The notes below the pieces were generated by a model, which was not told the origin of the DNA, ran no database searches, and saw nothing but the letters and a program-made list of their open reading frames with translations. From NCBI GenBank assembly GCA_003176045.1, contig PSRM01000108.1:4171-68170 (forward strand): 64,000 nucleotides of DNA, given 5' to 3'. The stretch comes from Verrucomicrobiota bacterium (GTDB lineage Bacteria; Verrucomicrobiota; Verrucomicrobiia; Limisphaerales; UBA8199). Shown piece by piece: positions 8,044 through 30,123 of this stretch (within the stretch, counting starts at the first letter, position 1; each line of letters starts with the position of its first letter). A program made the translations under genes and the position numbers.

Positions 8044-11000
8044 CTATCTAGCCACGCGGGCTTCCTCGAGTTCGATTTCGGCCCAGGAGGGAGCGCGCCA
8101 GAGGTGGAGCTGCCCTGCCTCGTTGATCGAGCCCAACAAGCTTTCATCGGAAGCAAAGGCGGTGTTGTGAAAGAGGCCGCCATTGCCGGGCAGGGCAAGC
8201 AATTCGCGACGGGTTTCGACATCCCAAATTTTTATCGCTTCTTTGGTGCCGTTGCCCACCGCAAGTCGCGTGCTGTCAGGAGAAAAGGCTAATGAGAAAG
8301 CTGTCAGCGATCGAAACACCCGCGGTTGGATTTGAGCCGAACCGTCATTGAAATCCTGCCTGTCCCACATCCAGATGCCGCCGCCGCTGGCGATTTGGGC
8401 AGTGAAGCGCCCTGTGGTGGGCGCTTGCGCAAAGAACCTGCCATCCGGTGAAAGCGCCTCGAGCAACCCGCCTGGCGGGTCCGTTCTGAATTGTGGCGGC
8501 AGCCTTGGCAACCCGGAAACCAGCCAGCCTGGCTTTGAGCGCGGGGGTTCGCCCAGGCCAAGCTCCGCTGCGGTCTTGCCGCGAAGATCCGTTTTCTGCC
8601 GGAAGTCCGGACCATCCCATTGGGCGAGATGGCCTGCGCGATCGGCGCACACAACCGATTTGTTGTCCGCAGTAAACCGCCACGCGGCGACCAGGTCGGG
8701 CAAGGTAACGCGGTTCTGTTGCGCCAGTTGGCGGCGTGTGTCCCACACCAGGACTTCGCCGTCCTTGCTCCCGCTCACGAACGTCTTGCCATCCGGCGAC
8801 GCCGCCAGCCGCCAAACTTCGTGCTTGTGGCCGGATAAAATCCGCGGCGCCGGCGTGTTCATCAGGTCGCTGAGATTCCAGACGCGGATGGTTTCGTCGC
8901 AACTCGCCGAAACCAGGGATTTGCCGTCGGGCAAAAAATCAAGTGAAGTGACAATCGCGGTGTGTCCCTGCAGCCGCCCGACTTGCCGGCCCGAGCTGAC
9001 GTCCCAAAGAAAAATGGCTCCGTCTCCGAGCCCGCCGCCCGAGGCGAGGATCCGGTCATCGGTCGAGAAGGCCAGCCCCCACACCGCTTGATCCGGCGAT
9101 TTGGTTCGCCATCGCTCCGCTCCGGTGTCGAGGTCAATGACGCAGAGTTGACTGCCTTTGGCCCGATAAGCCGCGAGATTCGAATGGCGGCTGATGGCGA
9201 AGCCGTGGGGCAGGAAAACGCCTCCGACATCAGGTGTTGGATGCGAGGCGATCAAGTGCCGGTCAGACACCCGCCACAGCTTAATCTGATCCTCCGGGTC
9301 CTCGCTCAGGACGATCAACGTCTGGCCATCTCGTGAAAAGGTCAGCGCCCCGCACCGTGCGGCCAGTAGCAGCTCATCCGGCAGCCGTTGTCTTGTACGG
9401 CCATCCCAAAACCCAATTCTGTAGTCGCTGCCACCGCCTTCCATCGCAAAGGCCAGCAATGGCTCGCGCGGCGAGAAAGCTGCTATGGTTCTGCCGCGGC
9501 CTGCGGACAGCAGCGCGATTTGCTTGCTGGTCGCAAGGTCCATCACGGAGACGATTCCACCCTCTTGTTCGCCGACGGCCACCCATTGGCCATCGTGCGA
9601 AATCAAGATCGAGAAAACCGAGTTTGATCTTTGGCATAGCGTGTTTTGCGCCTCGCTCCGGCAGAGACTCCACAAATAGCGCCACTCCCACCCGCGCAAA
9701 TCCGCTTCCCCAGCCCCAGGCCTGTGCCGGTTCAGAATCTCTCGCGCGCTGCCCAGCTTGCGGGTTTCAATAGCGTTCTGGACCAGGCGCATGTCGGAGG
9801 CGTAGGCGGTTCGCCGCGCCGCCAGTTTCTCCTTTTCGGCTTGCGCGCGGGCCTGCTCGGCCACATTGCGCAAGCGGCGCTGCTCCTTTTCCGCCCGGCT
9901 TGCCCGAATCGCCTGCCAGGTGCTCGCGGCCAGGCCGGCCACCAACACGAACAGCACGACGCTGGCAGCCGTGAACGCAACCTTGTTTCGAAGCACCAGC
10001 TTTTGAAGCCGGTATAGTCCGCCCGGCGGCCGGGCCACGACCGGCTCGTTCTCCAAATGCCGCTGGATATCCACTGCCAATGCGTTGGCTGTCTGGTAGC
10101 GCCGATCGCGGTCCTTCTCCAAACACTTCATCGCCACCCAATCCAGATCGCCTTTGACCAGGTGAATCAGTTTCGGAGCATCTAGCCGGCGCGCTCGCGC
10201 AACGGTCTTGAGGTCTATCTGGCTCAGTGTTTGTAGTCTGGTTGAAGGGCGGGCAGGTTCCTCCTCGCGCACCACGCGGCGAATTTCGTCCAGTCCCGCT
10301 TCAAGCAACCGTTTGGCATCAAACGGCGTCCTGCCGGTGAGCAGTTCGTAGAGAACAACCCCCAGACTGTAAATATCGGTGCGCGTGTCAATATCCACGC
10401 CGCTCATCTGCGCCTGCTCCGGACTCATATAAGCCGGTGTGCCGATGAATTGCTCGAAGGCGGTGAAAACCGTCTTATTAGTCAGCCGCTGGCCCCCCGT
10501 AGCCTTCGCGATGCCGAAATCAATCACCTTGGGAACGTGCCGGCCATCCACCGTGGTAACGAGTATGTTCGAGGGCTTGAGGTCGCGATGAATGATTCCT
10601 TTTTGGTGCGCATGCTGAACGGCGGAACAGACCTGCGCGAACAATTCCAGCCGTTCGCGCGGCGAAAGCTCTTGCTCATCACAGAACTCGGTGATTCTTT
10701 TCCCTCGCACTAACTCCATGATAAAGTAAGGCCGGCCACTGTCTGTGGCGCCTGCTTCCAGGACCCGGGCAATGTTCGGATGGTCCATCATGGCCAGCGC
10801 CTGGCGTTCGGCTTCAAAACGGGCCACGACTTGCCTGGTGTCCATGCCCAGCTTGATGACCTTCAAAGCCACCTTCCGGCGCACCGGTTCCTCCTGCTCG
10901 GCCATATAGACCACTCCACAGCCTCCTTCACCGATCTGCTGCAGGAGCTTGTAGCGGCCAATACGGTCGCCCGCTTTTTCGGTTGGAGCAGATGCTGCCT

Positions 11001-11217
11001 TGTCAGGGGCGGAAAGGGCTTGCTGTGGCTTCTCGGGATCGCCGCCAAGAAAGCCGCCGGCTTCGTCGTGGGCGCGCAGAAGCTTCTCGATCCGTTGTCT
11101 CAGAACGCTATCGTTGCCGCACGCTTCATCCAGAAAACGGTCGCGTTCGGCCCCGAGCGGACGCTCTAAAGCGTCCTTAAAGATTAGCGGCACAGATTTT
11201 TTCCCAGCCTCACTCAT
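8044..11217 (-). CDS. Membrane Ser/Thr protein kinase with C-terminal WD40 beta-propeller
   Basis: Hanks kinase motifs (GEGGCGVVY, VALK, HRDLKPSNIL, DFGIAK, GTPAYMSPE). One TM segment (VAFTAASVVLFVLVAGLAASTW), then a coiled coil, then WD40-type repeats (LASGG..DGAIFLWDV, SASCDETIRVWNL, SGSKDGEVLVWD). Confidence 0.9.
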   Translation of the reverse strand: MSEAGKKSVPLIFKDALERPLGAERDRFLDEACGNDSVLRQRIEKLLRAHDEAGGFLGGDPEKPQQALSAPDKAASAPTEKAGDRIGRYKLLQQIGEGGCGVVYMAEQEEPVRRKVALKVIKLGMDTRQVVARFEAERQALAMMDHPNIARVLEAGATDSGRPYFIMELVRGKRITEFCDEQELSPRERLELFAQVCSAVQHAHQKGIIHRDLKPSNILVTTVDGRHVPKVIDFGIAKATGGQRLTNKTVFTAFEQFIGTPAYMSPEQAQMSGVDIDTRTDIYSLGVVLYELLTGRTPFDAKRLLEAGLDEIRRVVREEEPARPSTRLQTLSQIDLKTVARARRLDAPKLIHLVKGDLDWVAMKCLEKDRDRRYQTANALAVDIQRHLENEPVVARPPGGLYRLQKLVLRNKVAFTAASVVLFVLVAGLAASTWQAIRASRAEKEQRRLRNVAEQARAQAEKEKLAARRTAYASDMRLVQNAIETRKLGSAREILNRHRPGAGEADLRGWEWRYLWSLCRSEAQNTLCQRSNSVFSILISHDGQWVAVGEQEGGIVSVMDLATSKQIALLSAGRGRTIAAFSPREPLLAFAMEGGGSDYRIGFWDGRTRQRLPDELLLAARCGALTFSRDGQTLIVLSEDPEDQIKLWRVSDRHLIASHPTPDVGGVFLPHGFAISRHSNLAAYRAKGSQLCVIDLDTGAERWRTKSPDQAVWGLAFSTDDRILASGGGLGDGAIFLWDVSSGRQVGRLQGHTAIVTSLDFLPDGKSLVSASCDETIRVWNLSDLMNTPAPRILSGHKHEVWRLAASPDGKTFVSGSKDGEVLVWDTRRQLAQQNRVTLPDLVAAWRFTADNKSVVCADRAGHLAQWDGPDFRQKTDLRGKTAAELGLGEPPRSKPGWLVSGLPRLPPQFRTDPPGGLLEALSPDGRFFAQAPTTGRFTAQIASGGGIWMWDRQDFNDGSAQIQPRVFRSLTAFSLAFSPDSTRLAVGNGTKEAIKIWDVETRRELLALPGNGGLFHNTAFASDESLLGSINEAGQLHLWRAPSWAEIELEEARVAR

Positions 11218-11461: not shown

Positions 11462-12154
11462 TCAGGAGAGAGGCTCGGACCGAATTTCATCGTAGAGCCA
11501 GGCTCGCGCAAAAGACCAGTCCCGCTTCGCCGTCCGCTCAGTCACGCCCAGAATTCTGCCGGCATCTTCAAGGCTGAGCCCGACAAAAAATCGCAGCTTT
11601 ACCAGTTGCGCAGCCCGTTCATCTTCCCTGGCGAGTTTGTCCAGCGCTTCATTGACGGCGATTAAGGTGTCATTGTTGGCAGCGCTGGCGACCTCCAACT
11701 CATCCAGGTCAATCCGCTCGCGTTCGCCACCTCGTTTCTGGGAGGCCTTGCGCCGGGCGCGCTCGATCAAAATACGGCGCATCGCATCGGCAGCAGCGGC
11801 AAAGAAATGCGCGCGGTTGGCGAAGGGCATTTCTGCGTCACTCCCGGCCAAGCGCAGCCAGGCCTCGTGTACGAGCGCTGTGGGCTGCAAAGTGTGGTCC
11901 GCCCGTTCGTTGGCCATCCGTGCCGCCGCCAGTTTGCGCAATTCGTCGTAAACCAGCGGCAGCAATTCCTCCGCGGCCTTTGCGGCGCCCGCTTGAGCGG
12001 CTTCCAGAATGCGTGTGACATCGCTCAAACCCCCACAATATTTCGCCGGCGGCGGCGCTTCAATACCTAACTCCCAGCAAGTCATCAAGCACGGCTCTCC
12101 ACCCCCTTCGATTATCATTTTGCCACACATCATTTTGCCTGCTCTTACGCACAC
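11462..12154 (-). CDS. ECF-type sigma-70 factor of the kinase-associated class (start uncertain; ATG 12085 plausible)
   Basis: DVTRILEAAQAG...LLPLVYDELRKLAAARMANERADHTLQPTALVHEAWLRL (region 2) and LVKLRFFVGLSLEDAGRILGVTERTAKRDW (region 4). Lies directly upstream of the Ser/Thr kinase gene. Confidence 0.85.
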   Translation of the reverse strand: MCVRAGKMMCGKMIIEGGGEPCLMTCWELGIEAPPPAKYCGGLSDVTRILEAAQAGAAKAAEELLPLVYDELRKLAAARMANERADHTLQPTALVHEAWLRLAGSDAEMPFANRAHFFAAAADAMRRILIERARRKASQKRGGERERIDLDELEVASAANNDTLIAVNEALDKLAREDERAAQLVKLRFFVGLSLEDAGRILGVTERTAKRDWSFARAWLYDEIRSEPLS

Positions 12155-12381
12155 TGCATACCCACCGTAAATCCCCCGATACCAAACCGCAACTCCGCCG
12201 CAAATTCACCGAAATTTTATCGCCCATTTGCAGCCAATAGCGGTCAGTAACGCCTATTAACGCCAAAAAAACTCATTAAAACTTTTTGCCTTGTCATTTC
12301 CTCGACTTACTGACTCGAAAAACATTGACTTTTCTGCCGCGGTCTGTCACGATCTGCGCATCCTGACTAGGTAATCCAGGC

Positions 12382-15300
12382 ATGTTGTTTCAAACTCCTT
12401 TGATTCTCCCGCAGAAACGCGGGACCATACGGCTAAGCCGTGCCACGTTTCACGCTTCACGCATCACGTTTCACGTTTCACGTTTCACCGTTCTCCTCTG
12501 CCTCGCTCTGCTGGTCTGCGCACGCCCAGCCTGTTCGGTGGGCATCTGGGTATCGGTGACCCGCGCGGCTCCTTCGAGCATTGACACCATGCTGCTGATG
12601 GGCGATGGCACCGTCATCGGCGCCAACGGAGGAACGGGATGGTATAAACTCACGCCGGATAGCCTGGGCAGCTACGTCAACGGGACGTGGACGACGGTGG
12701 CGCCGATGAATGATTCGCGCCTTTATTATTCGTCCCAGGTGATGACGGACGGCCGCATGTTTATTGCCGGCGGCGAATACGGCACCGGACTGTGCTCGGG
12801 TGAAGTCTATGACCCGGTGCTCAATCTTTGGGTGTTTTGTCCGGCGTCAGGCCAGCGGTTCTCCGACTCGATCTCGGCCATGGTGCCGAACGGCAACGTG
12901 CTGGTCTCGCCCGTCGGCCCTTCCAGCGGCGGCGGCACCATTTTTTACAATCCGACCTCCAATCTTTGGATAACTGGGCCAAAGCTCTTTCGCGGTGGTT
13001 ATCAGGATGAAGCCAGTTGGGTGAAGCTGCCGGATTCGAGCATCCTGACCGTGGACCCGTTCGGCCAGAACACGGAGCGCTATATTCCGTCCCTGAACCA
13101 ATGGGTCAACGACGCCACCGTGCCCGTGGCACTCTACAACAACCTTGGGGAGCTGGGCCCGGCGTTCCTGTTGCCCAACGGCAAGGTGATCTACATCGGC
13201 GGCACCACCAATACCGCCATTTATACGCCTAGCGGCACCACCAGCCCCGGCAGTTGGGTGGCAGGCCCGGTGATCCCTGGCGGGTTCGGCGCCACGGACG
13301 CCCCCGGAGCGATGATGGTCAACGGCAAGGTGTTGGCCTGCGTGGGCAGCGCTTCAACCTACAACGCTCCCGCTTACTTTTATGAATACGACTCTGTCGC
13401 CAACGCGTTTACTGCCACCGGTTGCCCCGGCAATAACGTCGCCGGCTCAAGTTACAACACCAGCCCGTATGTCCTGCGGATGCTGGCCCTGCCGGATGGC
13501 ACGGTGCTGACGGCGGTTTCGAGTTCGCAGTTGTATGTCTATGTGCCCGATGGCTCGCCGCTGGCCCAAGGCCAGCCGGTCATCAACAGCGTCACCGCCA
13601 ATTACTATCGGTCTTACCACATGACTGGCACGGGCCTGAACGGGATCTCCGAAGGCGCGGCGTATGGGGACGATGCGCAGATGGACAGCAACTATCCGTT
13701 GATCCGGATGACCAACAACACCAGCGGCCTGGTTTATTACGCGCGTTCCTATAACTGGAGCAGCACTTCAGTTATGACCAGCAATACCGTCGTCTCGACT
13801 GACTTCATCCTTCCGGCCTCGCTTCCGACCGGCAGCTACTCGCTGGTCGTGTCTGTCAATGGCAACGCTTCCGCGCCTTATTCATTGTCGTTCACCGCCG
13901 ACCCGCTGACGCTCTCCTCGCAAACAGGGTATAACTCCTCCGGCCCAACCAATGGACCGTTCCTCACCTCGGCCAAGGCCTTTACACTCAACAACACCAG
14001 CGGCAGCCCGTTGAACTGGGCGGCTGGCACGACAGGTTCCTGGCTGGCGCTGAGCCTGGCCGGCGGCACGATTGCCGGTGGAGGTAATGCCAGCGTAACC
14101 GTGAGCAATGCCATCGCGGCCCTGGCCCTGGGCCCCGGCAATTATCCGGGCACCGTTTGGTTCACCAATCTCACCAGCGGCGCCATCCAGTCGGTCCCGT
14201 TTTATTTGCAGGTTTTCCAGAATATCAAGAACCCCGGTTTTGAGACGGGCAGTTCGGGTTACTGGACCTTGAGCGGCACCCCAGGCAATACCTTCGTGGA
14301 TGATCGGACCGATAACAGCGTTTACGTACACTCAGGTTCTTATGCGGCATTCCTGGGGCAGAACACCTCCGGCAACACCTCTTTTGGCTACCTGTCTCAA
14401 ACCGTGCCCACCGGGCCAGGCCTGCAGTACACGCTCTCCTTCTGGCTCAATCATCCGTCGATTGACAGCACTCCGGCCGAGTTCCAGGTGTTTTGGAATG
14501 GGAGCATGATCTTCGACCAGACCTATGCCACCTCCTTCGCTTTCACCAACGTTCACCTGAACGTCACTGCAACAGCCTCTTCGACTTCACTCCAGTTCGG
14601 GTTCCGCAGCAATACAAATTATTTCGGGTTGGACGACGTCGCGCTGACCTCGCTGGCGGTTGGCCCGTCCATCACCGTTCAACCGGCTAACACCGCCGCT
14701 GACCTTGGCCTGAGCGCCAGCTTCTCCGTCACCGCCGGCGGCACCTCGCCCCTGAGCTACCAATGGCGCTTAAACAGCAACTCCATCCCGGGCGCCACTT
14801 CCAATGTCTTTACCCTCAGTAATGTCCAGGCCACCAATGCCGGCTCGTATTCGGTCCTTGTCACCAATCTTTACGGCAGCATCCTCAGCTCCAACGCCCT
14901 GCTCACCGTGCTTGACCCGTTCATCACCAATCAGCCGCAAGGCCAATTCGTGGCTGCCGGCGGCACCGCCACCTTCACCGTCGGCGCCGGAGGCACTTTC
15001 CCGCTGAGTTATCAATGGAAAGAAAACGGCCTCAACCTCACCGACGGTGGGCGCATCAGCGGCTCTCAGACGGCCACGCTCACTATTTCCAATATGCAGT
15101 CTTCAGATGTGGCCAACTACTCGGTGCTGGTGAGCAATACGAATGGTTCGGTCCTCAGTGCCGGCGCGTCGTTGATTGGACCGTTTCCGCCCACGATTGT
15201 GGGCCAACCGGCCAGCCAAACCGTGTTGGCCGGCTCTCTGGTCCCGTTTAGCGTCAGCGCCGCCGGCCCGGCTCCACTGACTTACCAATGGCAGGAACAA

Positions 15301-17241
15301 GGCACAAACATCAGCGATGGCGCCAAATTCAGCGGCACAACCACCGCGAACTTGCTGGTCTCGAAGGTGCAGGCGGCCGATATGGCCAATTACTCGGTTA
15401 TCGTGGGCAATGCTTACGGTTCGATCGGCAGCAGCAATGCGTTCCTCTCGCTGTTCCCGCTGGTCTGCTGGGGGCTCGATTCGGTCGGCCAGGCCGATAT
15501 TCCGCCGGGCCTAAGCAATATCACGGCTATCGCCTGCGGCGGCTCTCATGAATTGGTGCTCCACACCGATGGCACCATGGCTGCCTGGGGCGCCGGCACG
15601 AACAATACTGGCATCAATCCAAATTACGGCCAGGCAATGATTCCGCCTGGTTTGACGAATGTGACCGCGATTGCGGGCGGCGGTTTTCATACCCTGGCAG
15701 CGAAGAGTGATGGGACGGTTGTGGCCTGGGGGCTCGATACTTCCGGCCAAACCAATGTGCCCGCCGGCCTCTCCAACGTGATCGCCGTTGCCGCCGGCAG
15801 TTCCTTCAGCCTCGCGCTCAAGAGCGACGGCACAGTTACCGGATGGGGCCTCAACAATTTCGGCCAGGCCGCTCCGCCTGCCGGCCTGACCAATGCGGTG
15901 GCCATCGCCGCCGGCACGGCCTTCAGCCTCGCCCTGGCATCCGACCACACAGTCGTCGGTTGGGGCAGGAACAACGTGGGCCAAACGAGTGTGCCGCCTG
16001 ACCTGACCAACGCCGTGGCCGTTGCCGCCGGCAGTTCATTTGGCATGGCACTGCGCGCCGACGGCACCGTTACCGCCTGGGGCGCAAATGACTCGGGGCA
16101 GACGAATATGCCGCCTGACCTGACCAATGTCGCCGCCATCGCCTGCGGGAGCAGCCATGCCATCGTTTTAAAGCGGGACGGTTCGTTGATCGCCTGGGGT
16201 TCGAACATTGCCGGCCAGACGAACATTCCGATGGGGTTAAGCACTGTGATTGCGCTCGCCGCCGGTGGTTCGGATAACCTGGTGCTCGAAGGTGTTGCCG
16301 CGACGGCGCCGGGCATCAGCGCGCAGCCGCAAGGCGTTACCGTGGATTGCGGCACAAACGCTGCGTTTCTGGTCAGCGCGACCGGCACCCCGCCGCTCGC
16401 CTATCAATGGCTCAAGAACGGCGTCTCCATCCTCGGCGCCACTACCAATAATTACTCGGTCGTTCCGGCCAATTGCCAGTCGGCGGACTCCTACACCGTC
16501 ATCATCACCAACGTCACAGGTTCTATCACGAGCAGTGTAGCCACTTTAAGCGTGGTGGACACCATCGCTCCAACGATCCTCTGCCCCAGCAATTTGGTTC
16601 TGAACACGACCACTGGCCAGTGTTCGGCCATTGCAAACTACAGCGTCACCGCCACGGACAATTGTTCGATCGTCAGCCTGTTGGTGAACCCGCCCTCGGG
16701 GTCGTTCTTTCTGAAAGGAACGAACGTGGTGGTGTGTACGGCAACCGATTGCGGCGGCAACACCAACACCTGCTCGTTCACCGTGACGGTTTTGGACCAG
16801 GAAATGCCCGTAATTGCATGCCCGACCAATCAGACCCTGGCCTGCAACACTACCAACGGCGCGCAAGCGTTCTTTTCTCCGACCGCGACCGACAATTGCG
16901 ACGGCAGCGTCCCAGTTGTCTGCACTCCGCCTTCGGGCTCCTATTTCCTGGTGGGGACGAATCTGGTGACTTGCGTCGCCAACGACAGCAGCGGCAATAC
17001 AAACAACTGCACATTCACAGTTACGGTAGTTGAAAACCAGCCGTTGCTGAGCATTTCGATCAGCGGAACCAATTGCGTTCTGGTCTGGCCGCAGAGTTGC
17101 GCCAATTACCAACCGCAGCAAACGCCCAGTTTTGACCAACCCTGGTCGCCTGTGGCCGGAACTCCCTCGCCAATTGGCACAAATTTCACCATCACCGTCC
17201 CGCTCACCAACAGCGCATTTTTCAGGCTTCGGCAGAATTGA
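12382..17241 (+). CDS. Giant secreted mosaic protein (Kelch-like, CBM-like, Ig-like x4-5, RCC1 repeats x7, HYR x2, C-terminal FFRL tail)
   Basis: Signal core VLLCLALLVCARPACS. Ig-like repeats (SPLSYQWRLN..AGSYSVLVTN). RCC1 repeats (ALKSDGTVTGWG.N.FGQ). HYR-like units (DTIAPTILCPSN...ATDNCS). Ends ...SAFFRLRQN. Confidence 0.85.
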   Translation: MLFQTPLILPQKRGTIRLSRATFHASRITFHVSRFTVLLCLALLVCARPACSVGIWVSVTRAAPSSIDTMLLMGDGTVIGANGGTGWYKLTPDSLGSYVNGTWTTVAPMNDSRLYYSSQVMTDGRMFIAGGEYGTGLCSGEVYDPVLNLWVFCPASGQRFSDSISAMVPNGNVLVSPVGPSSGGGTIFYNPTSNLWITGPKLFRGGYQDEASWVKLPDSSILTVDPFGQNTERYIPSLNQWVNDATVPVALYNNLGELGPAFLLPNGKVIYIGGTTNTAIYTPSGTTSPGSWVAGPVIPGGFGATDAPGAMMVNGKVLACVGSASTYNAPAYFYEYDSVANAFTATGCPGNNVAGSSYNTSPYVLRMLALPDGTVLTAVSSSQLYVYVPDGSPLAQGQPVINSVTANYYRSYHMTGTGLNGISEGAAYGDDAQMDSNYPLIRMTNNTSGLVYYARSYNWSSTSVMTSNTVVSTDFILPASLPTGSYSLVVSVNGNASAPYSLSFTADPLTLSSQTGYNSSGPTNGPFLTSAKAFTLNNTSGSPLNWAAGTTGSWLALSLAGGTIAGGGNASVTVSNAIAALALGPGNYPGTVWFTNLTSGAIQSVPFYLQVFQNIKNPGFETGSSGYWTLSGTPGNTFVDDRTDNSVYVHSGSYAAFLGQNTSGNTSFGYLSQTVPTGPGLQYTLSFWLNHPSIDSTPAEFQVFWNGSMIFDQTYATSFAFTNVHLNVTATASSTSLQFGFRSNTNYFGLDDVALTSLAVGPSITVQPANTAADLGLSASFSVTAGGTSPLSYQWRLNSNSIPGATSNVFTLSNVQATNAGSYSVLVTNLYGSILSSNALLTVLDPFITNQPQGQFVAAGGTATFTVGAGGTFPLSYQWKENGLNLTDGGRISGSQTATLTISNMQSSDVANYSVLVSNTNGSVLSAGASLIGPFPPTIVGQPASQTVLAGSLVPFSVSAAGPAPLTYQWQEQGTNISDGAKFSGTTTANLLVSKVQAADMANYSVIVGNAYGSIGSSNAFLSLFPLVCWGLDSVGQADIPPGLSNITAIACGGSHELVLHTDGTMAAWGAGTNNTGINPNYGQAMIPPGLTNVTAIAGGGFHTLAAKSDGTVVAWGLDTSGQTNVPAGLSNVIAVAAGSSFSLALKSDGTVTGWGLNNFGQAAPPAGLTNAVAIAAGTAFSLALASDHTVVGWGRNNVGQTSVPPDLTNAVAVAAGSSFGMALRADGTVTAWGANDSGQTNMPPDLTNVAAIACGSSHAIVLKRDGSLIAWGSNIAGQTNIPMGLSTVIALAAGGSDNLVLEGVAATAPGISAQPQGVTVDCGTNAAFLVSATGTPPLAYQWLKNGVSILGATTNNYSVVPANCQSADSYTVIITNVTGSITSSVATLSVVDTIAPTILCPSNLVLNTTTGQCSAIANYSVTATDNCSIVSLLVNPPSGSFFLKGTNVVVCTATDCGGNTNTCSFTVTVLDQEMPVIACPTNQTLACNTTNGAQAFFSPTATDNCDGSVPVVCTPPSGSYFLVGTNLVTCVANDSSGNTNNCTFTVTVVENQPLLSISISGTNCVLVWPQSCANYQPQQTPSFDQPWSPVAGTPSPIGTNFTITVPLTNSAFFRLRQN
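12444..12488 (+). repeat. 7-nt tandem array (cacgttt) x6.4 inside the leader-coding region
   Basis: Units cacgttt cacgctt cacgcat cacgttt cacgttt cacgttt cac, translated as [14 protein letters not shown]. Confidence 0.9.
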
Positions 17242-19923: not shown

Positions 19924-19930
19924 CTGAAAT

Positions 19931-20011
19931 CGTCATCGTCCTCGTCCTCGTCCTCGTCCTCGATTCTCCCGCCTATTCGAGGACGAGAACGAGGACGAGG
20001 ACGAGGACGAG
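19931..20011. repeat. Inverted pair of 6-nt tandem arrays (cgtcct)n / (aggacg)n forming a long hairpin
   Basis: Left arm 19931..19962, loop attctcccgcctatt, right arm 19978..20011. It fills the sppA-upp spacer. Confidence 0.9.
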
Positions 20012-20017
20012 TAGGAA

Positions 20018-21202
20018 TTACTGCACGAACAGAGGGCAAAGGAAATAGGGCTGGCCGGCTTTCAGCTTTGGCACGTCCAGGCCCACATCAATCTTCAGGG
20101 TTTTCGCGTCTGCTTTGCCGGAAAGTTTCAAAAGATCTGCCAGGCCGTAGCGCTCCTGGTATTCGACGAGTCTTGGTTTTTCCGTGGCTGGAATGCCCGC
20201 GATGGTTTTTGCCCGCTCGACGGCTTTTTCGAGACCGCCCAACTCGTCCACAAATCCCAGGTCGTGCGCTTCGGTCCCCGAGAGCACACGGCCGTCAGCA
20301 TAATCTGTCCAGTTCGAATTCAGGGCGACGCCTTCGGTCTTGTTTTTGTCGTGTGCGCGATCGCGTCCTTTTTGGACGACATCTTTGAATTTGCCGTAGG
20401 TTTGATCAATGAGCTTTTGGACCATGTCCTTCTCTTCCTGGGTGATGGAATCGGGCTCGCGCGCACCGCTGAGCATGTCCTTATATTTGCCGCTCTTGAA
20501 AGTTTGCGGCAGCAAGCCCACCTTGTCGGCCAGGGTGCGATAATTCCACGTTCTCATTATGACCCCGATGCTGCCGGTGATGGTCATATCATTGGCCACA
20601 ATCCAGCGGCATGGCGCCGACACATAGTATCCGCCCGAGGCAGCCAGATTGCCCATCGAGGCAATGACGGCCTTGCCCGTGCGATCTTGAAATTTGGCGA
20701 TGGCATCATTGATCTCGTCGGACGCCAGCACTTCGCCGCCAGGGGAATCCACTTTCAGGATCACGGCCTTCACTCGGGAATCTTCCTCGGCGCGTTTTAG
20801 TTGGGCCCGGATAACCTCGACCATGCTGTATCCTCCGGTGTCACGAAGTTCGCCCATGATGATGCCTTCGACTTTGACGACGGCAATTTTGTCGCTGCCC
20901 TCGTTGTCCTCGACAATCATCTCTTGAAGCTTGGGTCCGGCAGTGTGCGAATAAGCGCTGGTGCTACCTCTAAGGAAAATACGCGCGATCGTTCCGATAT
21001 TCAGGAACATGCTCATAACCAGCAGCACCAGCAAAATGATGGCAAACACCATCCAGCCTCGGCCCTTGCGGGGCGCAGGCGAGGCCACTGGCGCCACAAT
21101 CACTGGAGGTGGTGGTAAGGCGGGTGGAGGCGGCGGTGCAGGCGGTGGCGGCGCGGATGAGGGTGGCGCATTGTCTTCCATAATTGGGGCACCATAGCTC
21201 AA
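20018..21202 (-). CDS. sppA: Signal peptide peptidase SppA (36K type)
   Basis: Pro-rich N-terminus, one TM, then IAVVKVEGIIMG and ASMGNLAASGGYYVSAPC (catalytic Ser region). Confidence 0.85.
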   Translation of the reverse strand: MSYGAPIMEDNAPPSSAPPPPAPPPPPALPPPPVIVAPVASPAPRKGRGWMVFAIILLVLLVMSMFLNIGTIARIFLRGSTSAYSHTAGPKLQEMIVEDNEGSDKIAVVKVEGIIMGELRDTGGYSMVEVIRAQLKRAEEDSRVKAVILKVDSPGGEVLASDEINDAIAKFQDRTGKAVIASMGNLAASGGYYVSAPCRWIVANDMTITGSIGVIMRTWNYRTLADKVGLLPQTFKSGKYKDMLSGAREPDSITQEEKDMVQKLIDQTYGKFKDVVQKGRDRAHDKNKTEGVALNSNWTDYADGRVLSGTEAHDLGFVDELGGLEKAVERAKTIAGIPATEKPRLVEYQERYGLADLLKLSGKADAKTLKIDVGLDVPKLKAGQPYFLCPLFVQ

Positions 21203-21237
21203 AGGGGCAGCAGGGGCAAGCGGCGTACCTCCCTAAC

Positions 21238-21424
21238 TTAATCGCAAACCTAATCGCAAACTTAGTCGACTTATTTAAGTCCAAAGTCCAAAGTCCAATG
21301 TCCAAAGTCCAAAGTCCTTCGCCAAGCTCGCAACCGGGCCATTACCAGAGCACTTTGTCTTTCACTTTGTCTTTCACTTTGTCCTCCGAGTCTCAAATTA
21401 GTCGAGCATTGAGCATTGAGCATT
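21238..21424. repeat. Cluster of four tandem arrays (12-, 7-, 12- and 7-nt units)
   Basis: (taatcgcaaac)x2 at 21238-21264; (aagtcca)x6 at 21277-21318; (cactttgtcttt)x2.8 at 21351-21384; (gagcatt)x3 at 21404-21424. Confidence 0.9.
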
Positions 21425-21457
21425 TGCTATCATTTACGAACTCCCCGCAATCCGCAC

Positions 21458-22213
21458 TTACTTAAGCAGCGGCTCGACCGAGCGCCAGATGGATGCGTGC
21501 ATCTGTTGCACGTCGGCGCTGGCGTCAATTACTTTGACTCGTTCAGGCTCCGCGGCGGCGATGGCTTCATAGCCGTGAGCCACTCGAGCAAAGAACTCCC
21601 GGTCGGCTTCTTCAATGCGGTCGCGGATGAACGGCAGGGTGGCCTGGCGAGTGCGCAGGCGCTCCTGGCTCAGTTCGTGCGGGACGCGGAAAAAGAATGT
21701 GAGCGCCGGGCGCGTGTCGCCGACGGCAACATCCACGATCGTCTTGACCATGGCCAGATCCAACTGGCGACCATACCCTTGATAAGCCGTTGTGGAGTCA
21801 TAATAGCGATCGCACAGGACGATGTCTCCGCGGGCCAGGGCGGGGCGGATCAGTTCGCGGACCAATTGGGCGCGGCTGGCGTTCATCAGGAGCAGCTCCG
21901 TCTCTGCCTGCATGGCGGCGTTGTCTTTGCTGTGTTTGAGTGTGTGCCGGATTTCCTCGCCGATCAATGTTCCCCCCGGCTCGCGCGTGGTGGTCACGCC
22001 GCGGCCTAGCGAGCGCAAGCGTTCGGCCAGCAACGACACCTGGGTGGATTTGCCGCTGCCTTCACCGCCTTCGAAGGTGATTAACAAGCCGGAGCGCAAG
22101 GGTTTAGGGTTCAGGGCGAAAAGAAGACGAACTTTGAACCTTGAACTTTGAACCTCGAACCTTGAACGGGAAAACTGCGCTTCGCGCGACTCGGCTCCGA
22201 GCGTGAGATTCAA
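21458..22213 (-). CDS. tmk: Thymidylate kinase (real start probably near 22099, TTG)
   Basis: LITFEGGEGSGKSTQ P-loop and DRYYDST. The first ~40 codons of the ORF-track model only translate the (ggttcaa) arrays. Confidence 0.88.
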   Translation of the reverse strand: MNLTLGAESREAQFSRSRFEVQSSRFKVRLLFALNPKPLRSGLLITFEGGEGSGKSTQVSLLAERLRSLGRGVTTTREPGGTLIGEEIRHTLKHSKDNAAMQAETELLLMNASRAQLVRELIRPALARGDIVLCDRYYDSTTAYQGYGRQLDLAMVKTIVDVAVGDTRPALTFFFRVPHELSQERLRTRQATLPFIRDRIEEADREFFARVAHGYEAIAAAEPERVKVIDASADVQQMHASIWRSVEPLLK

Positions 22214-22245
22214 AGTTCAAGGTTCGAGGTTCAAGGTTCAAGGTT
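22129..22245. repeat. Inverted pair of 7-nt arrays (ttgaacc)n / (ggttcaa)n
   Basis: Arms at 22129..22167 and 22209..22245 are complementary with about one mismatch over ~28 nt. The loop is ~41 nt. Confidence 0.9.
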
Positions 22246-22253
22246 TGTCTTTT

Positions 22254-23708
22254 TTATCCTCGTTTCAGCCGCGGGCCTTTGGGGGTGTCCTCGATCAGCC
22301 ATCCTTTTGATTTTAGTTCGTCGCGGATGGCATCGCTGCGTTTGAAATCTTTGGCCTTTCGTGCTGCCTGACGCGCCTCGAGCAAAGCATTTATTTCCGC
22401 AGGCGCCTCGGCCTCCGGCGGCTTGGCAATTCCAAGGACCGAATTGACTTGCTCCCAGGTGTCGAGCGCGGCAGCGGCTTCTGGGGGACTCATGGACCCC
22501 TGGGCGAGTTTGATGTTGGTTTCCTTTACCCATTCGAATACGACTCCCCAAGCGCCGGAGACATTCAGGTCGTTGTCGAGTGCTTCGGTGAAATCCTTTA
22601 GTAACGGGGCGGGGACGGCTTCGTCCCCGGCTTTTCTGTTTCCGCCAGGAGAAACCGGGGACGAGGCCGTCCCCGCCCCTTCACGCAATCTGGCTAAACA
22701 CTCATCCAACCGCGCTAGAGCGGCCTTTGCAGACTCCAGGCCTCCAAGGGTAAAGTTAAACGTCTCGCGGTAATGAGCGGTGAGGAGCAGATAGCGGATC
22801 TCACGTCCTGAAAAGCCTTTGGCCAGCAGGTCGCGGAGGGTGAAAAAGTTGCCGAGCGATTTGCTCATTTTTCTGCCTTCGACCAGGAGGTGCGCGCCAT
22901 GCACCCAAAATTTCACGAAAGGCCTGCCGGCGCCCTGCAGGCCAGCGCCTTCGCTTTGGGCAATTTCATCCTCGTGATGCGGGAACATCAGGTCCTCACC
23001 CCCGAGATGGAGGTCAAAGCTGGGGCCGAGCAGTTTCATGCTCATGGCGCTGCACTCGATGTGCCATCCGGGTCTGCCCTCACCCCACGGACTGGGCCAA
23101 AAGACTGCGCCATCCTCGGGCACACGCGCTTTCCAGAGAGCGAAATCGGCCACGGCCTCCTTCTCATACTCATCGCTGGCAACGCGCTCAGTGGCGCGCA
23201 TTTCATCAAAGTTAAGCTTCACAAGCTGGCCGTAGTGCCCGCCGGCCTCCCGGTACTTTGCGATGCTGAAATAGACCGAGCCATCGGGCACGCGGTAGGC
23301 CAGCCCGTTTTTCATCAGCTTCTCGATCAGCGAGATAATGTCCGGGATGTACTGGGTGGCGCGGGGCAGGTGATGAGGCCTCAGAAAGTTAAGAGCTTCC
23401 ATGTCTTCGAAGAACGCCTGTTCAAACTTGCCCGTGAATTCGGCCAGGGAGGTCTTCGTCTCAGCCATGCGTTTGATGATCTTATCGTCCACGTCCGTGA
23501 TATTCATCACGTGCTGGACCTTGAACCCTTTAAATTCGAGGACTCGCCGGACAAGATCGCCAAAGATGAATGTGCGCCAATTGCCGATATGCGCGAAGTC
23601 ATAGACGGTGGGCCCGCAACAGTACATGCCCACCTTGCCGACAGACGAATCGAGCGGCTCGAACTCCTGGATCGAGCGTGTCAGCGTGTTAAATAGTTTC
23701 AGAGCCAT
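22254..23708 (-). CDS. cysS: Cysteine--tRNA ligase
   Basis: CGPTVYDFAHIGNWRT (HIGH region), KMSKSLGN, full-length class I architecture. Confidence 0.93.
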   Translation of the reverse strand: MALKLFNTLTRSIQEFEPLDSSVGKVGMYCCGPTVYDFAHIGNWRTFIFGDLVRRVLEFKGFKVQHVMNITDVDDKIIKRMAETKTSLAEFTGKFEQAFFEDMEALNFLRPHHLPRATQYIPDIISLIEKLMKNGLAYRVPDGSVYFSIAKYREAGGHYGQLVKLNFDEMRATERVASDEYEKEAVADFALWKARVPEDGAVFWPSPWGEGRPGWHIECSAMSMKLLGPSFDLHLGGEDLMFPHHEDEIAQSEGAGLQGAGRPFVKFWVHGAHLLVEGRKMSKSLGNFFTLRDLLAKGFSGREIRYLLLTAHYRETFNFTLGGLESAKAALARLDECLARLREGAGTASSPVSPGGNRKAGDEAVPAPLLKDFTEALDNDLNVSGAWGVVFEWVKETNIKLAQGSMSPPEAAAALDTWEQVNSVLGIAKPPEAEAPAEINALLEARQAARKAKDFKRSDAIRDELKSKGWLIEDTPKGPRLKRG

Positions 23709-23780
23709 ATCAGAACGGCGTGCAGGGTAAAAAGAACCGCACGGAACGCAATCGCGCAGTTTTTCTCGTTCCTTTTCCCT

Positions 23781-23862
23781 GGCAGAATCTCATTAACACC
23801 TGGCTTCAGCCAGGTGTAGCTCGGTGTGGAAACCTGCATAAACTGTTTTCAACAGTTTATGC
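23781..23862. repeat. Dispersed double-hairpin repeat (cacctggcttcagccaggtg + gcataaactgttttcaacagtttatgc)
   Basis: A reverse-complement copy lies at 27248..27327. Confidence 0.85.
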
Positions 23863-24196
23863 TCCGCTGCCGTAATTGGCTTATTGCCAGTTCCTTGAGC
23901 GGAAGTACTCCTGCCGCCGAGGCGGGAGATCATCCATGGAGGTCGGGCAATCCTTGAGCACCTCCAGCCAGTCAGTCCTTTGGATTGCTGCATTAGACTT
24001 CGCTGGGAAGCGGCCGCGAGACTGAGAACGCTTATCGCGAACTGTGGCCTTGAGCCGCTGCTTGCTACGTTCACTGTTATTCCGTTTTCTCACAAATTCG
24101 AATTTACTAAAAATTGAGCCACGATCCAGACAGGATTGAAGTCCCGGCCGCCGGCGCGGAGGGGACGAGGGTGGACAACGCGCTGCGCCCAAGCCT

Positions 24197-24256
24197 GGAG
24201 CGCCCAACTCTGTTGGGCGCGAATCCGTCCCTCGCCCAACAGAGTTGGGCGCTCCA
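24197..24256. repeat. Perfect palindromic repeat (ggagcgcccaactctgttgggcg arms)
   Basis: 23-nt arms separated by cgaatccgtccct. A related copy lies at 48351..48437. Confidence 0.85.
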
Positions 24257-24261
24257 TGAAT

Positions 24262-25554
24262 TCAGGGCAGCAACAGTATTTCCGGCCGCAATCTTCCGAC
24301 GAACTGGTGTGGCAGGGCCGGGTCAATGGAGCCGGGGACGAAAGCCTCGGGGGCGACGTGGCCGTCGCAGAAAAGGACGGTGGCTTTTTGGATATGGCGG
24401 AAGTGGGCGTTGGGCGGCTTGATGGTGTTGTCCACGTAATAGAATTCTTCGATCATTGGGTTGGTCGGAGAGGCCGGGGGCTGGAAGGTGTTAATTTGAG
24501 CGGCGTCGGCGAAAAGAGTGATTTGAGAAGTCCGTGTGACCCTCGCGATTTTAATAGCGAGACCATTATTGGTGCCGGAGAGGTAGAGGTTGTAACCGTA
24601 ACCGTAGGAGGCGCCGGTGGCCTTTAGCTTGAATTGCGGCGAGACGTAATCAAAGGAGGGACATAGCTCAACGCCGCGGCCCTTCAAGTATTGGTACAGC
24701 GCTCCAGCAGTGGCATCGAATTGGCGCTGGCCCTCGGCGCCGTCCGAGAGCCAGCCGAACCAGTAGAGCCGTCCTTTGTTTGTCGGCCAGCCGCCGTAGA
24801 GAAAACAGGCGCCGCTGTTGTCTTCCCAATAGAGATTTGCTGCCAGCCCGAGTTGATGGAGGTTGCTGGTGCATTTGATGCGTTGCGCGCGCAGTTTGGA
24901 GCGTGAAAGCGCGGGCAGCAGGAGGGCGGCGAGAACGCCGATGATGGCGATGACGACGAGGAGTTCGATTAACGTGAAAGCGTTGAAATGTTGAAACGTT
25001 AAAACGTTAAAACGTGAAACGTGAAACGTGAAACGTGAAACGTGAAACGTGGTGGGAGTTGCGGATACTGGATACTGGATACTGGATACTGGCTGCTGGA
25101 TGATGTGCCGCTCGAGGCTGCAGCTTTCTGCGAACCGCCGAATCCTTTCTCCACTACCGCAGGCATTTTCGGAATCCGGTTCGGCATAGTCCCGCAGGGA
25201 CGACAGAAAATAGCCCAGCGTTTCAACGCTGGGTTTGTTTCGCGATGTGGGATAAGTCCCGTCAGGGACGGCAGAAAAAAGGCTATTTCTGTCGTCCCTG
25301 CTGGACTCGGCGCCATTGCGACCTCGGTCCCAGCGTTCAAACGCTGGGCTATTTTCTTTCATCCCTACGGGATTCATAAAGTAGGATTTTCGCGGATTTG
25401 CGCAATGCGCGGATATTCGCGCCGAAATGGAATTCGGCGCTCCGAGCTTCCGCCCCTCGCCCTTCGCCCGCGCCCTCGTTTGCCGGTTGAACTTCATCAG
25501 GTCACTACTGGCGGTCCGCACGGATCCTGTAAAGGGCATTTCCTGGTGGCGCAT
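24262..25554 (-). CDS. Prepilin-type N-terminal methylation domain protein of the H-X9-DG (DUF1559-like) class; start codon unresolved
   Basis: [30 protein letters not shown] (codons at ~24900-24984) and C-terminal [17 protein letters not shown]. Everything upstream of ~24985 in the ORF translates tandem and dispersed repeats. Confidence 0.75.
24971..25092. repeat. Two adjacent 7-nt arrays: (acgtgaa) ~11 units (5.5 perfect, 25012-25050) and (gatactg)x4 (25064-25092)
   Basis: Read directly. Same unit family as 12444..12488, in the opposite orientation. Confidence 0.9.
25186..25375. repeat. Dispersed repeat family B (cccagcgtt[tc]aaacgctggg hairpins, gtcccgtcagggacg)
   Basis: Related copies lie at 32870..32970 and 55015..55195. 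Confidence 0.8.
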
Positions 25555-26485
25555 TGGTATCGGACAAAATCATCGAGCCCGTGATTCCCGGCGCCGCCGG
25601 CAAAATCGGCGTCCAGGAACGCAAATCCGCCGTGCGCTCGAGCGTGTAAAGCCAGTTGGTTTGCGCGGTGAATTGCGCGTGCCAGACGGTGTTGCTAAGG
25701 CTGCCGCTCATGTTTTGCACCGGCAAGTCGGTGACGAGTACATTATCAATCGTGCCTTTGGCCAGGATCGAGTCGCCGTAAGTGTCTCCGGCCGCCGAGT
25801 AGCTGCTCACGGCAAAGGTATCGAGTCTGAAATCCGCAGTTGGATTCGCGAAGGCCAACGGCATCGAGGTGTAACGCTGCCCGTTGGTGAGCACGTTGGA
25901 GTGGATATTCGTTTCGCCCGCATAATGGAGCAGTTGCACGCGGTAGGTCACGCCGAGGTTCATGGGCAGGTTGTCGTAAATAAAAAAGAAGCCGTTGCTG
26001 GCATCGGTGAGAGTCGCGGCAATGTTCGGTGTGCCTGCGCCGTCATCCGGAAAATAATCGAATTCAAGCAAGTCGGGACTGTTGCCCAGTGCGCGGGAGA
26101 AATTCGTGCTGGTCGCATCGGCCAAATTGAGAAGGCCGACGCTCACCTCATATACCCCAGTCCATTGAATGTCGCTCAACTGGATATCGAATTGGACCAG
26201 AAAGGCATCGTTGGTGGTGAGCGTCGCTGGGAGAGGATGATAGAAGTAGCTATTGGATTGAGAAGAATCCCAGGTGGCGCGGAGATTCTGGTTGGTGGAG
26301 TCCCATTGGAACAGGTTTGTGTTGCCGAAAGCTTTCCAGCCGCGCGTAGCCGGGTCTGAAGAGAAGTCGTCCTGGAATGTGGCGGCCACGGAAGACAGAG
26401 CGAACAAGAAGGTGGGGATTGCCAATTGCCAATTTCCAATTGCCAATTCCGCCAAGTTCGCGGGTTTTCGATTGAATTGTTGCAT
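25505..26485 (-). CDS. Exported protein with a C-terminal YRIR-tail module
   Basis: [38 protein letters not shown] signal peptide. C-terminus [18 protein letters not shown]...[12 protein letters not shown] resembles the tails of the two giant proteins. Confidence 0.7.
26419..26450. repeat. 7-nt tandem array (ttgccaa) x4.5 inside the leader-coding region of 25505..26485
   Basis: ttgccaa ttgccaa tttccaa ttgccaa ttcc, translated on the minus strand as [11 protein letters not shown]. Confidence 0.9.
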
Positions 26486-26568
26486 GACTGATCTTTCAAT
26501 TTTTGCACCGAATGTTTTCGGGGCAGGGTTTACGATTGAGAGACCAGAGACGGGGGGCGGAAGGGGTA

Positions 26569-26717
26569 AAAACGTTAAAAGGTTAAAAGGTTAAAACGTT
26601 GGAAATTGCTCGGCGCAGGCTTTTGGCCGCCTTTGTCTTTCACTTTGTCTTTCACTTTGTCTTTCAGGGTCGTAACTGAATTCGACAAAGTGAAAGACAA
26701 AGTGAAAGACAAAGTGG
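26569..26717. repeat. (ggttaaa)-type array plus an inverted pair of 12-nt arrays (cactttgtcttt)n / (aaagacaaagtg)n
   Basis: Array at 26569-26600. Arms at 26631-26667 and 26684-26717 with a ~16-nt loop. Confidence 0.9.
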
Positions 26718-27123
26718 CGCTGACCGCCACTTTAGCCTGGCCCAACAAAAAACCCTCATCCCCCGGCAAAACGGAGAATGAAGGCATTCAAGCGAATCCC
26801 AGCGCGCACTCGCGCGAGGGGCTGGCCTCATCCTTCTCTTTGACGGAGAAGTCGGTCGCGCTCGGAAGAGCGGACCGTGACGAGCACAACCAGACCGGTA
26901 TCCTGACTTGGGGCTTCGCCTCACTCCCGCCTTCCCGCTCCGTTTCTTCCATGAAGCGACGCAGCAGTGGCAGTGGGAGTTTGTAGCCCGTTACAGTGGC
27001 GCAACCGTCCTCGATTCTCACGAGGTTCCCTGACGCCTGGCTATGGTAAGAGATGGACCAAACGATCCATCGCTGTCAAAGAACGAGTGGAATCTACGAC
27101 GAAGCCAAGAACGAGACAACTGA

Positions 27124-27201
27124 AAAATCCGAAATCCGAAATCCGAAACCCGAAATCCGATGCTGACAGAAAGATTGCAGGATATAAAAATTTTTCTGTC
27201 A
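27124..27201. repeat. (aaatccg)x5 array followed by a ctgacagaaa...tttctgtcag hairpin
   Basis: Array at 27124-27160, hairpin at 27164-27201. The same hairpin word occurs at 33146..33196. Confidence 0.85.
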
Positions 27202-27247
27202 GTCTCGCCTTTTTGCTTTGCGCATAATGGTCAGTGGTGGCGGGAAA

Positions 27248-27327
27248 TCATAAACTGTTGAAACAGTTTATGCGGGTTTCAGGGGCGACTTCACCTGGCT
27301 GAAGCCAGGTGTTAATGAGATTCCGCC
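27248..27327. repeat. Dispersed double-hairpin repeat, inverted copy of 23781..23862
   Basis: cataaactgttgaaacagtttatgc ... cacctggctgaagccaggtgttaatgagattc. Confidence 0.85.
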
Positions 27328-27374
27328 AGGCCCGACCGATTACCTTTGCGTCTTGGCGTTAAAACTGGCTCACC

Positions 27375-29546: not shown

Positions 29547-29733
29547 AACAAGCCGTTCCCGACCGCCGCCGTCACGGTAAGATGAACCACAAAACTGATA
29601 ATCGAGTCAAACTTAATAACTGACCTTTTTTATCATTTTTCAGGGGTTCCGAACATCATGGGACACCCGAAAGCCCCTTGGGGGCACTTACCGAACACGG
29701 ACCAAGGGAAAACCCGGGGAGAAAACGAAAGGA

Positions 29734-29768
29734 GTTAAATAGGTTAAATAGGTTAAATGGTTAAATAA
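29734..29768. repeat. 9-nt array (gttaaatag) x~4
   Basis: gttaaataggttaaataggttaaatggttaaata. The reverse complement occurs at 43781..43807. Confidence 0.85.
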
Positions 29769-29921
29769 GGGACGCCCGTAAGGCGGGCGAAGCCGTCGAA
29801 ATTGGCAATTTCGAGTCCTTTCAGCGGGTTTTCTCAGGGAAGGAGATTGCTCGTTGCGCCGAGAACGCGGCGCGCAGCGCCGGGGGCGTATGTACCTTCC
29901 CTGCGTGGAGCACATGCCCAA

Positions 29922-29993
29922 AGCGCCGGGTGAGGGCACCCGGCCTACATGTCCAGAGCGTTGTGCGTGTAGGCCGGGTGCCCTCACCCGGCG
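29922..29993. repeat. Perfect 27-nt-arm palindrome (gcgccgggtgagggcacccggcctaca / tgtaggccgggtgccctcacccggcgc)
   Basis: Arms at 29922-29948 and 29967-29993 with an 18-nt loop. Same family as 11254..11342. Confidence 0.9.
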
Positions 29994-30123
29994 CGCGCGC
30001 GGAGGGAAATGTCCAAGTTAACGGTACATTTAGGATGCGCCCCAACGCCGGTCCGTTTGCCCCGCCCCTCGCCCCTGCTTTTTCTGTCCCGAATCTGCTT
30101 TGGTGGGAATAGTATTTAGTGAG

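Follow-up and report, generated by a model that had tools for sequence, protein, structure and literature searches.

A heptanucleotide array in the leader of a large verrucomicrobial surface protein is probably a tolerated, lineage-typical repeat

We consider a stretch of 64,000 nucleotides (nt) from a Verrucomicrobiota bacterium (assembly GCA_003176045.1, contig PSRM01000108.1, positions 4,171 to 68,170; hereafter the window). At the 5' end of one of its genes, which encodes a protein of 1619 amino acids (aa), there is a short array of 7-nt units. The array lies at 12444-12488, between the start codon ATG 12382 and the hydrophobic core of the leader. An original prediction, made from the letters of the window, proposed that it may be a contingency locus, with slipped-strand mispairing as the switch. 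We argue for a more ordinary explanation. The array is most probably a heptanucleotide simple sequence repeat (SSR) typical of the lineage, of the "long SSR of 5-11 nt units" or short tandemly repeated repetitive (STRR)-like kind, and it sits in the gene as a tolerated insert of 15 codons in the n-region of a signal peptide. We put the probability of this reading at about 0.6.

The array would have arisen by tandem duplication or slippage inside the gene's own 5' end. It would then have expanded in the least constrained coding segment, which adjoins the 5' untranslated region (5'-UTR), and it would be translated as part of the n-region. Such an insert would be tolerated because n-regions are under almost no sequence constraint, and the arrays found in surface loops and linkers of conserved proteins in relatives would be tolerated likewise. 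We infer all three parts of this account, the translation, the slippage origin and the near-neutrality, from the sequence.

The array and the leader

The position of the array is clear from the sequence, its translation and Tandem Repeats Finder (TRF), all of which place it where the original prediction did, between ATG 12382 and the hydrophobic core of the surface protein. TRF gives it a period of 7, 6.4 copies, 89% matches and a score of 69 (its units, and the coordinates of the other features, are in Table 1). The 5' half is degenerate, with three of the six units diverged. The perfect run at the 3' end is the sole part of the array that could misalign without mismatches. It spans 3.6 units; the prediction carried the caveat that only three consecutive units are perfect. 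A chance origin can be ruled out. The window has 30 TRF rows scoring at least 50, whereas 30 dinucleotide shuffles average 0.17; of period 7 it has 11 rows and the shuffles none.

The open reading frame (ORF) has three in-frame canonical starts, ATG 12382, TTG 12385 and TTG 12400, and all of them are 5' of the array. ATG 12382 is placed 18 nt past an in-frame stop (12364-12366). From there the whole leader stays open and in frame through the array. No in-frame ATG, GTG or TTG occurs within the array or between it and the end of the hydrophobic core. The prediction had said as much of the interval between array and core, and we agree. The next canonical start is GTG 12538, which is 16 codons downstream of the array and already beyond the core. 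It must be noted that the start codons cannot be ranked by ribosome-binding site, since the confident genes of the window have no Shine-Dalgarno signal.

The homologues help to place the core. Searched against proteins, the first 620 aa match more than 3000 relatives with a best identity of 63%, and several of them are named as Verrucomicrobiia or Limisphaerales kelch-repeat proteins. The best 120 homologues, where the called N-terminus is complete, begin with a variable and unconserved extension. This is followed by a hydrophobic stretch ending in small residues and then by the conserved mature start, (A/G)-G-T-W-T-x-L. About a dozen of these 120 have their N-terminus called inside the mature domain. 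In the 1619-aa protein VLLCLALLVCARPACS is followed by VGIW, and together they align with the signal peptides of the homologues and their mature start GTW. A Sec-type signal peptide would be expected to have a positively charged n-region, some 7-15 hydrophobic residues as h-region, and small residues at -3 and -1 of the cleavage site. By inspection the leader has an n-region with K12, R13, R17, R20, R27 and R34, an h-region VLLCLALLVCA, and a c-region A-C-S cut before V. A Tat-signal reading of the 'SRFT' motif was rejected, as there is no twin arginine.

The core is therefore best taken as that of a probable Sec-type signal peptide, so the protein would need a start upstream of it. Because all the canonical starts lie 5' of the array and the core lies 3' of it, the array must, if this alignment is right, be read through. 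The original prediction had reached the same view from the position of the start codons, and the homology of the core to the signal peptides of the 120 homologues lends it support. None of these homologues has a leader with 7-aa periodicity, so the array appears to be a recent insertion specific to this gene. Without its 45 nt the leader reads MLFQTPLILPQKRGTIRLSRA-VLLCLALLVCARPACS, which is an ordinary signal peptide. The 15 codons thus form a clean insert where n-region and h-region meet, and they preserve the frame. They add two Arg and two His and lengthen the n-region.

The rest of the protein looks sound. The ORF is intact, with strong domain matches and no visible decay of the gene. In Pfam the Kelch motif falls in the N-domain, there are four Ig domains, two HYR domains and an RCC1-type propeller, and the matches to BACON and CBM_4_9 are weak. 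The product is predicted to be a large secreted or surface protein. An exact-sequence look-up found neither this protein nor the CysS of the window on record.

Consequences of a change in unit number

A change in unit number would do what the original prediction claimed. From ATG 12382 the gain or loss of one or two units shifts the frame and leads to a stop after 56-69 aa. A change of three units preserves the frame. The prediction overlooked a GTG at 12440, which stands in the +1 frame directly 5' of the array. If the array gained one unit or lost two, this codon would share the frame of the gene, and a start codon would thus be available in two of the three phases. The locus does have the geometry of a translational switch, but a leakier one than was assumed. 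Rare slips of one unit in the 25-nt perfect run would give null alleles, or alleles rescued by GTG 12440. The array is a possible frameshift hotspot, and there is no indication that it has been selected as an ON/OFF switch.

Arrays of the same kind across the lineage

We compared the window with 80 related loci (1.3 Mb) anchored on the neighbouring M24 peptidase gene, with at most 66% protein identity. Nearly all are Verrucomicrobiota metagenome-assembled genomes (Verrucomicrobiia, Limisphaerales, Pedosphaera). None of the 80 loci has a homologue of the 1619-aa protein, and synteny is not conserved. The commonest array periods in these loci are 7 (n=54), 14 (n=42), 12 (n=39) and 21 (n=18). The density of arrays has a median of 1.9 per 10 kb and a maximum of 8.5, and the window has 4.5. 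Related loci and window together have 108 period-7 arrays with 58 canonical units. AAACGTG, which is CACGTTT on the other strand, is the commonest of these units. It owes this partly to one orthologous site just 5' of the M24 peptidase start. A literature search found no paper on heptanucleotide repeats in Verrucomicrobia or Verrucomicrobiota.

Arrays in relatives are also found in frame in conserved ORFs, with units of 7, 14 and 16 nt. They occur in the M-domain of ClpB, in TsaD, in a loop of MqnA, in TPR membrane proteins of PMT-like type and in the linker of a PAP2-PMT_2 fusion. The insert in the MqnA loop varies in size, from 0 to 15 extra residues among relatives. In the PAP2-PMT_2 linker seven genomes have different units at one site. 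Short non-triplet arrays are thus tolerated in essential genes of the lineage, and for that reason the presence of an array in an ORF is no sign of switching. The same holds more widely. Arrays are found genome-wide and lineage-wide, mostly in intergenic or 5'-UTR positions and with some in housekeeping genes, so finding one in a gene does not point to a selected switch.

An exact scan for four or more CACGTTT units gave at least 120 metagenome stretches. Among the matches listed there are 128 arrays, which we classified in the orientation without stops in any frame, and 53 of them could be given a positional class. Thirty of the 128 end within 15 codons 5' of a start codon, a 5'-UTR position; examples are hemA-like genes (L102/L121) and a dnaJ-like gene (L180). 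Another 21 are inside long ORFs, mostly in membrane-protein loops. In 2-5 of them a start codon is followed by the array and then by a prepilin motif or by the first transmembrane or hydrophobic segment (L137, L160, L152, L156 and perhaps L116). The remaining 75 are unplaced, 55 having no long ORF downstream and 20 being unclear. The leader geometry does recur among CACGTTT arrays, as a small minority. The exact flanks of the 12444-12488 array, with a variable gap between them, had 0 matches when metagenomes were scanned.

The arrays in 5'-UTR positions raise the question of whether the one studied here is coding at all. It could be a functionally non-coding element, part of a 5'-UTR or a cis-regulatory site. 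In that case translation would begin at a non-canonical codon, either at the array or 3' of it, unless the gene has lost its start and is decaying. The element could act on translation initiation, as a U-rich leader without structure or by binding a regulator of the single-strand-binding type. For the TAACTGA repeats of Beggiatoaceae a comparable role in translation has been put forward (PMC4679880). All three frames are open across the array, so the ORF could cross it by chance, and without Shine-Dalgarno signals the upstream starts carry no rank. CACGTTT also stands directly 5' of the M24 peptidase start in relatives, and the prepilin-type gene of the window (24262-24983) lacks a credible start 5' of its own arrays. 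However, a start past the array is hard to find. The codons CTG 12508 and CTG 12511 would leave the core too short, and the stretch from array to core end offers no canonical one. The ATG just past the in-frame stop, the open leader and the normal signal peptide that remains without the array all argue for coding, and an intact ORF with strong domain matches is not what a decaying gene would look like. We consider the non-coding alternative unlikely. The fold of the region adds nothing to it: a role in RNA structure was dropped because the fold of 12360-12520 is not significant (z = -1.9) and the array has around it no inverted partner array and no larger dispersed repeat. A promoter and terminator scan of 11900-12700 gave nothing useful, and no Rfam family matches the locus.

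Stability of the arrays and the case for a switch

Some pairs of contigs are close enough to compare array lengths. L147 (array at 531-624) and L165 are 99.8% identical, with 5 mismatches in 2681 nt, yet their arrays are 94 and 136 nt. The difference of 42 nt is six units and falls in both the CACGTTT and the CACGTCT blocks. L168 (7496-7538) and L184 differ by one unit in contigs that are 88% identical. Other near-identical pairs have identical arrays, namely L097/L163 (61 nt) and L114/L124 (91 nt, with a 162-nt array also of the same length). Short arrays comparable to the one at 12444-12488 are constant between genome pairs that are about 96% identical, as in GGAGCGT x5.1 (L049/L052) and a 14-mer x2.6 (L023/L030). 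The three diverged units in the 12444-12488 array argue against frequent homogenising slippage there.

This is the evidence against which the originally predicted contingency locus must be judged. In that scenario slipped-strand mispairing would alter the number of 7-nt units and shift the 4.8-kb ORF relative to ATG 12382, and the result would be a heritable and reversible ON/OFF state. A possible benefit would be escape from phage or predators that recognise the surface protein. A non-triplet unit does lie inside the ORF past the start codon, between the only in-frame starts and the core, and the product it would truncate is a very large secreted Ig/HYR/Kelch protein. Similar leader arrays occur nearby, in the prepilin-type gene and in the gene of a secreted protein. 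Tracts of heptanucleotides are known or proposed to mediate phase variation in Haemophilus influenzae, but those tracts mostly have 6-38 perfect units (PMC2651432), against 3.6 perfect units and three diverged ones here. High-frequency slippage calls for a long and homogeneous tract; the perfect part of this one is 25 nt, and the threshold is not sharp. Contingency repeats would also be expected preferentially at surface or contingency genes. This is not what we find, because the arrays are mostly intergenic, the ClpB, TsaD and MqnA genes of relatives carry them as well, and in metagenomes the CACGTTT arrays stand mostly before ordinary genes. The class as a whole is genome-wide and has no specificity for contingency functions.

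Two further points speak against a switch. Short arrays are stable over about 4% nucleotide divergence. GTG 12440 would provide a start codon for one OFF phase of the two, which would blunt the difference between ON and OFF. We found neither an OFF-phase allele nor a length variant at this locus, because the collections contain no close relatives. We think a working contingency locus improbable. The part of the prediction that stands is the geometry, and the variation of CACGTTT arrays elsewhere is on its side. The function it drew from that geometry is weakened by the lineage-wide spread of the arrays, the short perfect run and the constancy of short arrays.

Several points weigh against our own reading, and it is fair to set them out together. 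A translational slipped-strand switch of a surface protein would have exactly this geometry, and the window contains at least two more genes for secreted proteins with arrays in their leaders. CACGTTT arrays can change by whole units between near-identical contigs, as the pair L147/L165 has done. The signal-peptide character of the leader was judged by eye and by homologue alignment. A non-canonical start, for example ATC 12463, may also be used.

Other arrays and neighbouring features of the window

The window has dozens of short arrays in TRF. Most have 7-nt units and others have units of 6, 8, 9, 12 or 14 nt. They are concentrated at 19.9-33.3 kb (19930-33290) and at 43.6-48.3 kb (43671-48266). 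About 20 of the 27 strongest are intergenic.

Table 1. Coordinates of the array, its gene and other features of the window, and of in-frame arrays in related loci
Feature	Source	Position	Strand	Remarks
ORF, 1619 aa	window	12382-17241	+	Pfam: Kelch, BACON, CBM_4_9, Ig x4, RCC1, HYR x2
Start region and first part of predicted signal-peptide n-region	window	12382-12443	+	MLFQTPLILPQKRGTIRLSRA
GTG in +1 frame, directly 5' of array	window	12440-12442	+	open into array
Heptanucleotide array	window	12444-12488	+	45 nt, 15 codons; CACGTTT, CACGCTT, CACGCAT, CACGTTT x3, CAC
Longest perfect period-7 run	window	12464-12488	+	25 nt, 3.6 units
Predicted signal-peptide hydrophobic core and c-region	window	12490-12537	+	VLLCLALLVCARPACS; homologue alignment
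Ser/Thr kinase with WD40 propeller	window	8044-11217	-	1057 aa
ECF sigma factor gene	window	11462-12154	-	PF07638 type
Second CACGTTT array	window	24971-25051	-	AACGTGA on + strand; 10.9 copies; TRF
GGATACT array, x5.6	window	25063-25101	- (gene)	also at 5' end of prepilin-type gene
Acido-Lenti-1 RNA motif, four copies	window	25188-25233; 25329-25374; 55016-55060; 55150-55194	-; +; -; +	Rfam
ATTGCCA array, x4.4	window	26418-26448	-	between ATG 26485 and hydrophobic core of 326-aa secreted protein
GGTTAAAA array	window	26565-26600		
Cobalamin riboswitch	window	26876-27055	-	73 bits
CGAGGGT array, perfect, x4.6	window	29003-29034	-	in frame, HSTLDPRPSTLA
CTTTGCGT array	window	45881-45912		
ACGCAAAG array	window	48238-48266		
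In-frame array, ClpB M-domain	L015; L063	5584-5615; 6372-6400		
In-frame array, TsaD	L049; L052	9322-9363; 9307-9348		13-14-aa insert, not in 10 orthologues
In-frame arrays, joint list for MqnA, TPR and PAP2-PMT_2	L022; L007; L016	19909-19939; 15311-15443; 14498-14581 and 20499-20715		

A second CACGTTT array belongs to a prepilin-type gene. It is in frame in the ORF 24262-25554 (minus strand), and it passes directly into the prepilin methylation motif at the F-T-L codons (TTC ACG TTA). The coincidence of its last unit with these codons suggests that the array grew from the gene's own sequence. No canonical start is found between this array and the prepilin motif. The nearest upstream ATG is 127 codons off, within one of the Acido-Lenti-1 RNA motifs of the window. 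In 11 other prepilin-type genes of the related loci the start is 3-21 codons before the motif. The gene in the window may be silenced or may use an unusual start. The four Acido-Lenti-1 copies form two inverted pairs, about 100 nt apart, and one of the pairs falls in the spurious stretch that extends the prepilin-type ORF upstream.

The third leader array is that of the 326-aa secreted protein, whose gene (region 25505-27055, minus strand) has no Pfam match. Its geometry is like that at 12444-12488, but it contains in-frame TTG codons. The cobalamin riboswitch lies 390 nt 5' of this gene. Between the two there are also the GGTTAAAA array and an inverted pair of 12-mer arrays (26631-26716).

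These three leaders invite a broader claim. The leader arrays of secreted proteins could act together as distributed slipped-strand switches for the surface repertoire of Limisphaerales-type Verrucomicrobiota, seeded by an unusually active process that generates heptanucleotides. That process may seed arrays, most commonly CACGTTT, into 5'-UTRs, leader peptides and protein loops alike. The candidates in the window would be the 1619-aa protein, the prepilin-type protein and the 326-aa protein 3' of the cobalamin riboswitch. We regard this as very unlikely.

Inverted pairs of arrays fold into very stable hairpins. The values are -61 kcal/mol (z = -8.6) at 22125-22250, -65.5 (z = -9.9) at 19925-20015 and -59.7 kcal/mol (z = -13.5) at 26625-26720. 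The first follows cysS and the second follows an S49 peptidase gene, and both are in gaps between tandem minus-strand genes. Such hairpins may be terminators or cruciform sites. One perfect array is in a protein of another sort, a 723-aa hybrid histidine kinase, where it sits in the linker between the receiver and the GAF/PAS/HATPase part (29003-29034). A change of one unit there would uncouple both parts of the kinase.

Several units recur in the window. The 12-mer CTTTGTCTTTCA is found at 21351, 26631, 26684 (reverse complement) and 33247 (reverse complement, degenerate). CTGACCT recurs at 45852 and 47113, and GAAC(C/T)TT at 22129, 22209 (reverse complement) and 43671. The arrays CTTTGCGT and ACGCAAAG are reverse complements of each other, 2.3 kb apart, and flank two minus-strand genes, one for a 337-aa protein and one for a zinc-type alcohol dehydrogenase-like protein.

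Upstream of the 1619-aa gene, and divergent from it, are genes for an extracytoplasmic function (ECF) sigma factor and for a Ser/Thr kinase. The two may form a regulatory pair dedicated to the surface protein.

Significance

The lineage carries exceptionally dense and diverse heptamer arrays, and these are read in frame wherever proteins tolerate them, in leaders, membrane-protein loops, ClpB and TsaD. It is mildly surprising, as a by-product of the analysis, how often conserved proteins carry in-frame arrays. These arrays bear on the origin of protein length variation. Gene callers mis-place starts around heptamer arrays. Verrucomicrobiota genomes are a rich system for the origin and function of bacterial heptanucleotide repeats. 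The stakes would be different if the array at 12444-12488 were a working switch. Phase variation based on SSRs would then extend to environmental Verrucomicrobiota, and to heptanucleotides that are read through a signal peptide. If the leader arrays switched together there would be contingency loci in a free-living, non-pathogenic phylum, and to our knowledge none have been described in the Verrucomicrobiota.

Comparison with known systems

In geometry the array resembles the opa system of Neisseria, where CTCTT pentamers in the region coding for the signal peptide cause translational phase variation. Both have a non-triplet repeat in a surface-protein gene, placed after the start codon and before the part that codes for the hydrophobic stretch of the leader, so that unit changes shift the frame. 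However, the opa repeats are long, perfect and demonstrably variable, and they belong to a host-adapted pathogen. The array here has 3.6 perfect units and is in a bacterium of free-living environmental type. The repeat class here is also not confined to surface-protein genes.

Haemophilus influenzae has a match in unit length. It carries TGAAAGA x13-38 5' of hmw1A and hmw2A, and AACAACC x1-13 near or in genes for TonB-dependent receptors (PMC2651432, PMC8262952). The unit is a heptanucleotide as it is here, and one of the H. influenzae tracts is within an ORF, where a change in length truncates the product. Those tracts are mostly longer than the array here; they vary between strains, and the best studied of them act on the promoter rather than on the reading frame.

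We argue that the best match is with the long SSRs of large non-pathogen genomes. These have units of 5-11 nt with heptanucleotides dominant (Mrazek et al. 2007, as summarised in PMC4679880 and PMC4692102). Examples are the STRR heptamers of cyanobacteria, GGGAATC in Xanthomonas and Nostoc, and TAACTGA in Beggiatoaceae. The window and the 80 related loci have units in this size range, with heptamers commonest and well above chance. The arrays are mainly intergenic, dispersed and common to relatives, as the intergenic majority in the window and the metagenome stretches attest. The likeness extends to detail. The arrays are short (2-12 copies), there are many per genome, they are often just 5' of start codons, they frequently form inverted hairpin pairs and they are occasionally translated. 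There are differences too. The host is a Limisphaerales-like member of the Verrucomicrobiota, a lineage that the papers we found do not report. There are many units here and not one or a few, and the arrays are repeatedly in frame in conserved ORFs and leader peptides. The array of the 1619-aa protein is, we argue, most probably one more member of this kind, caught in a leader peptide.

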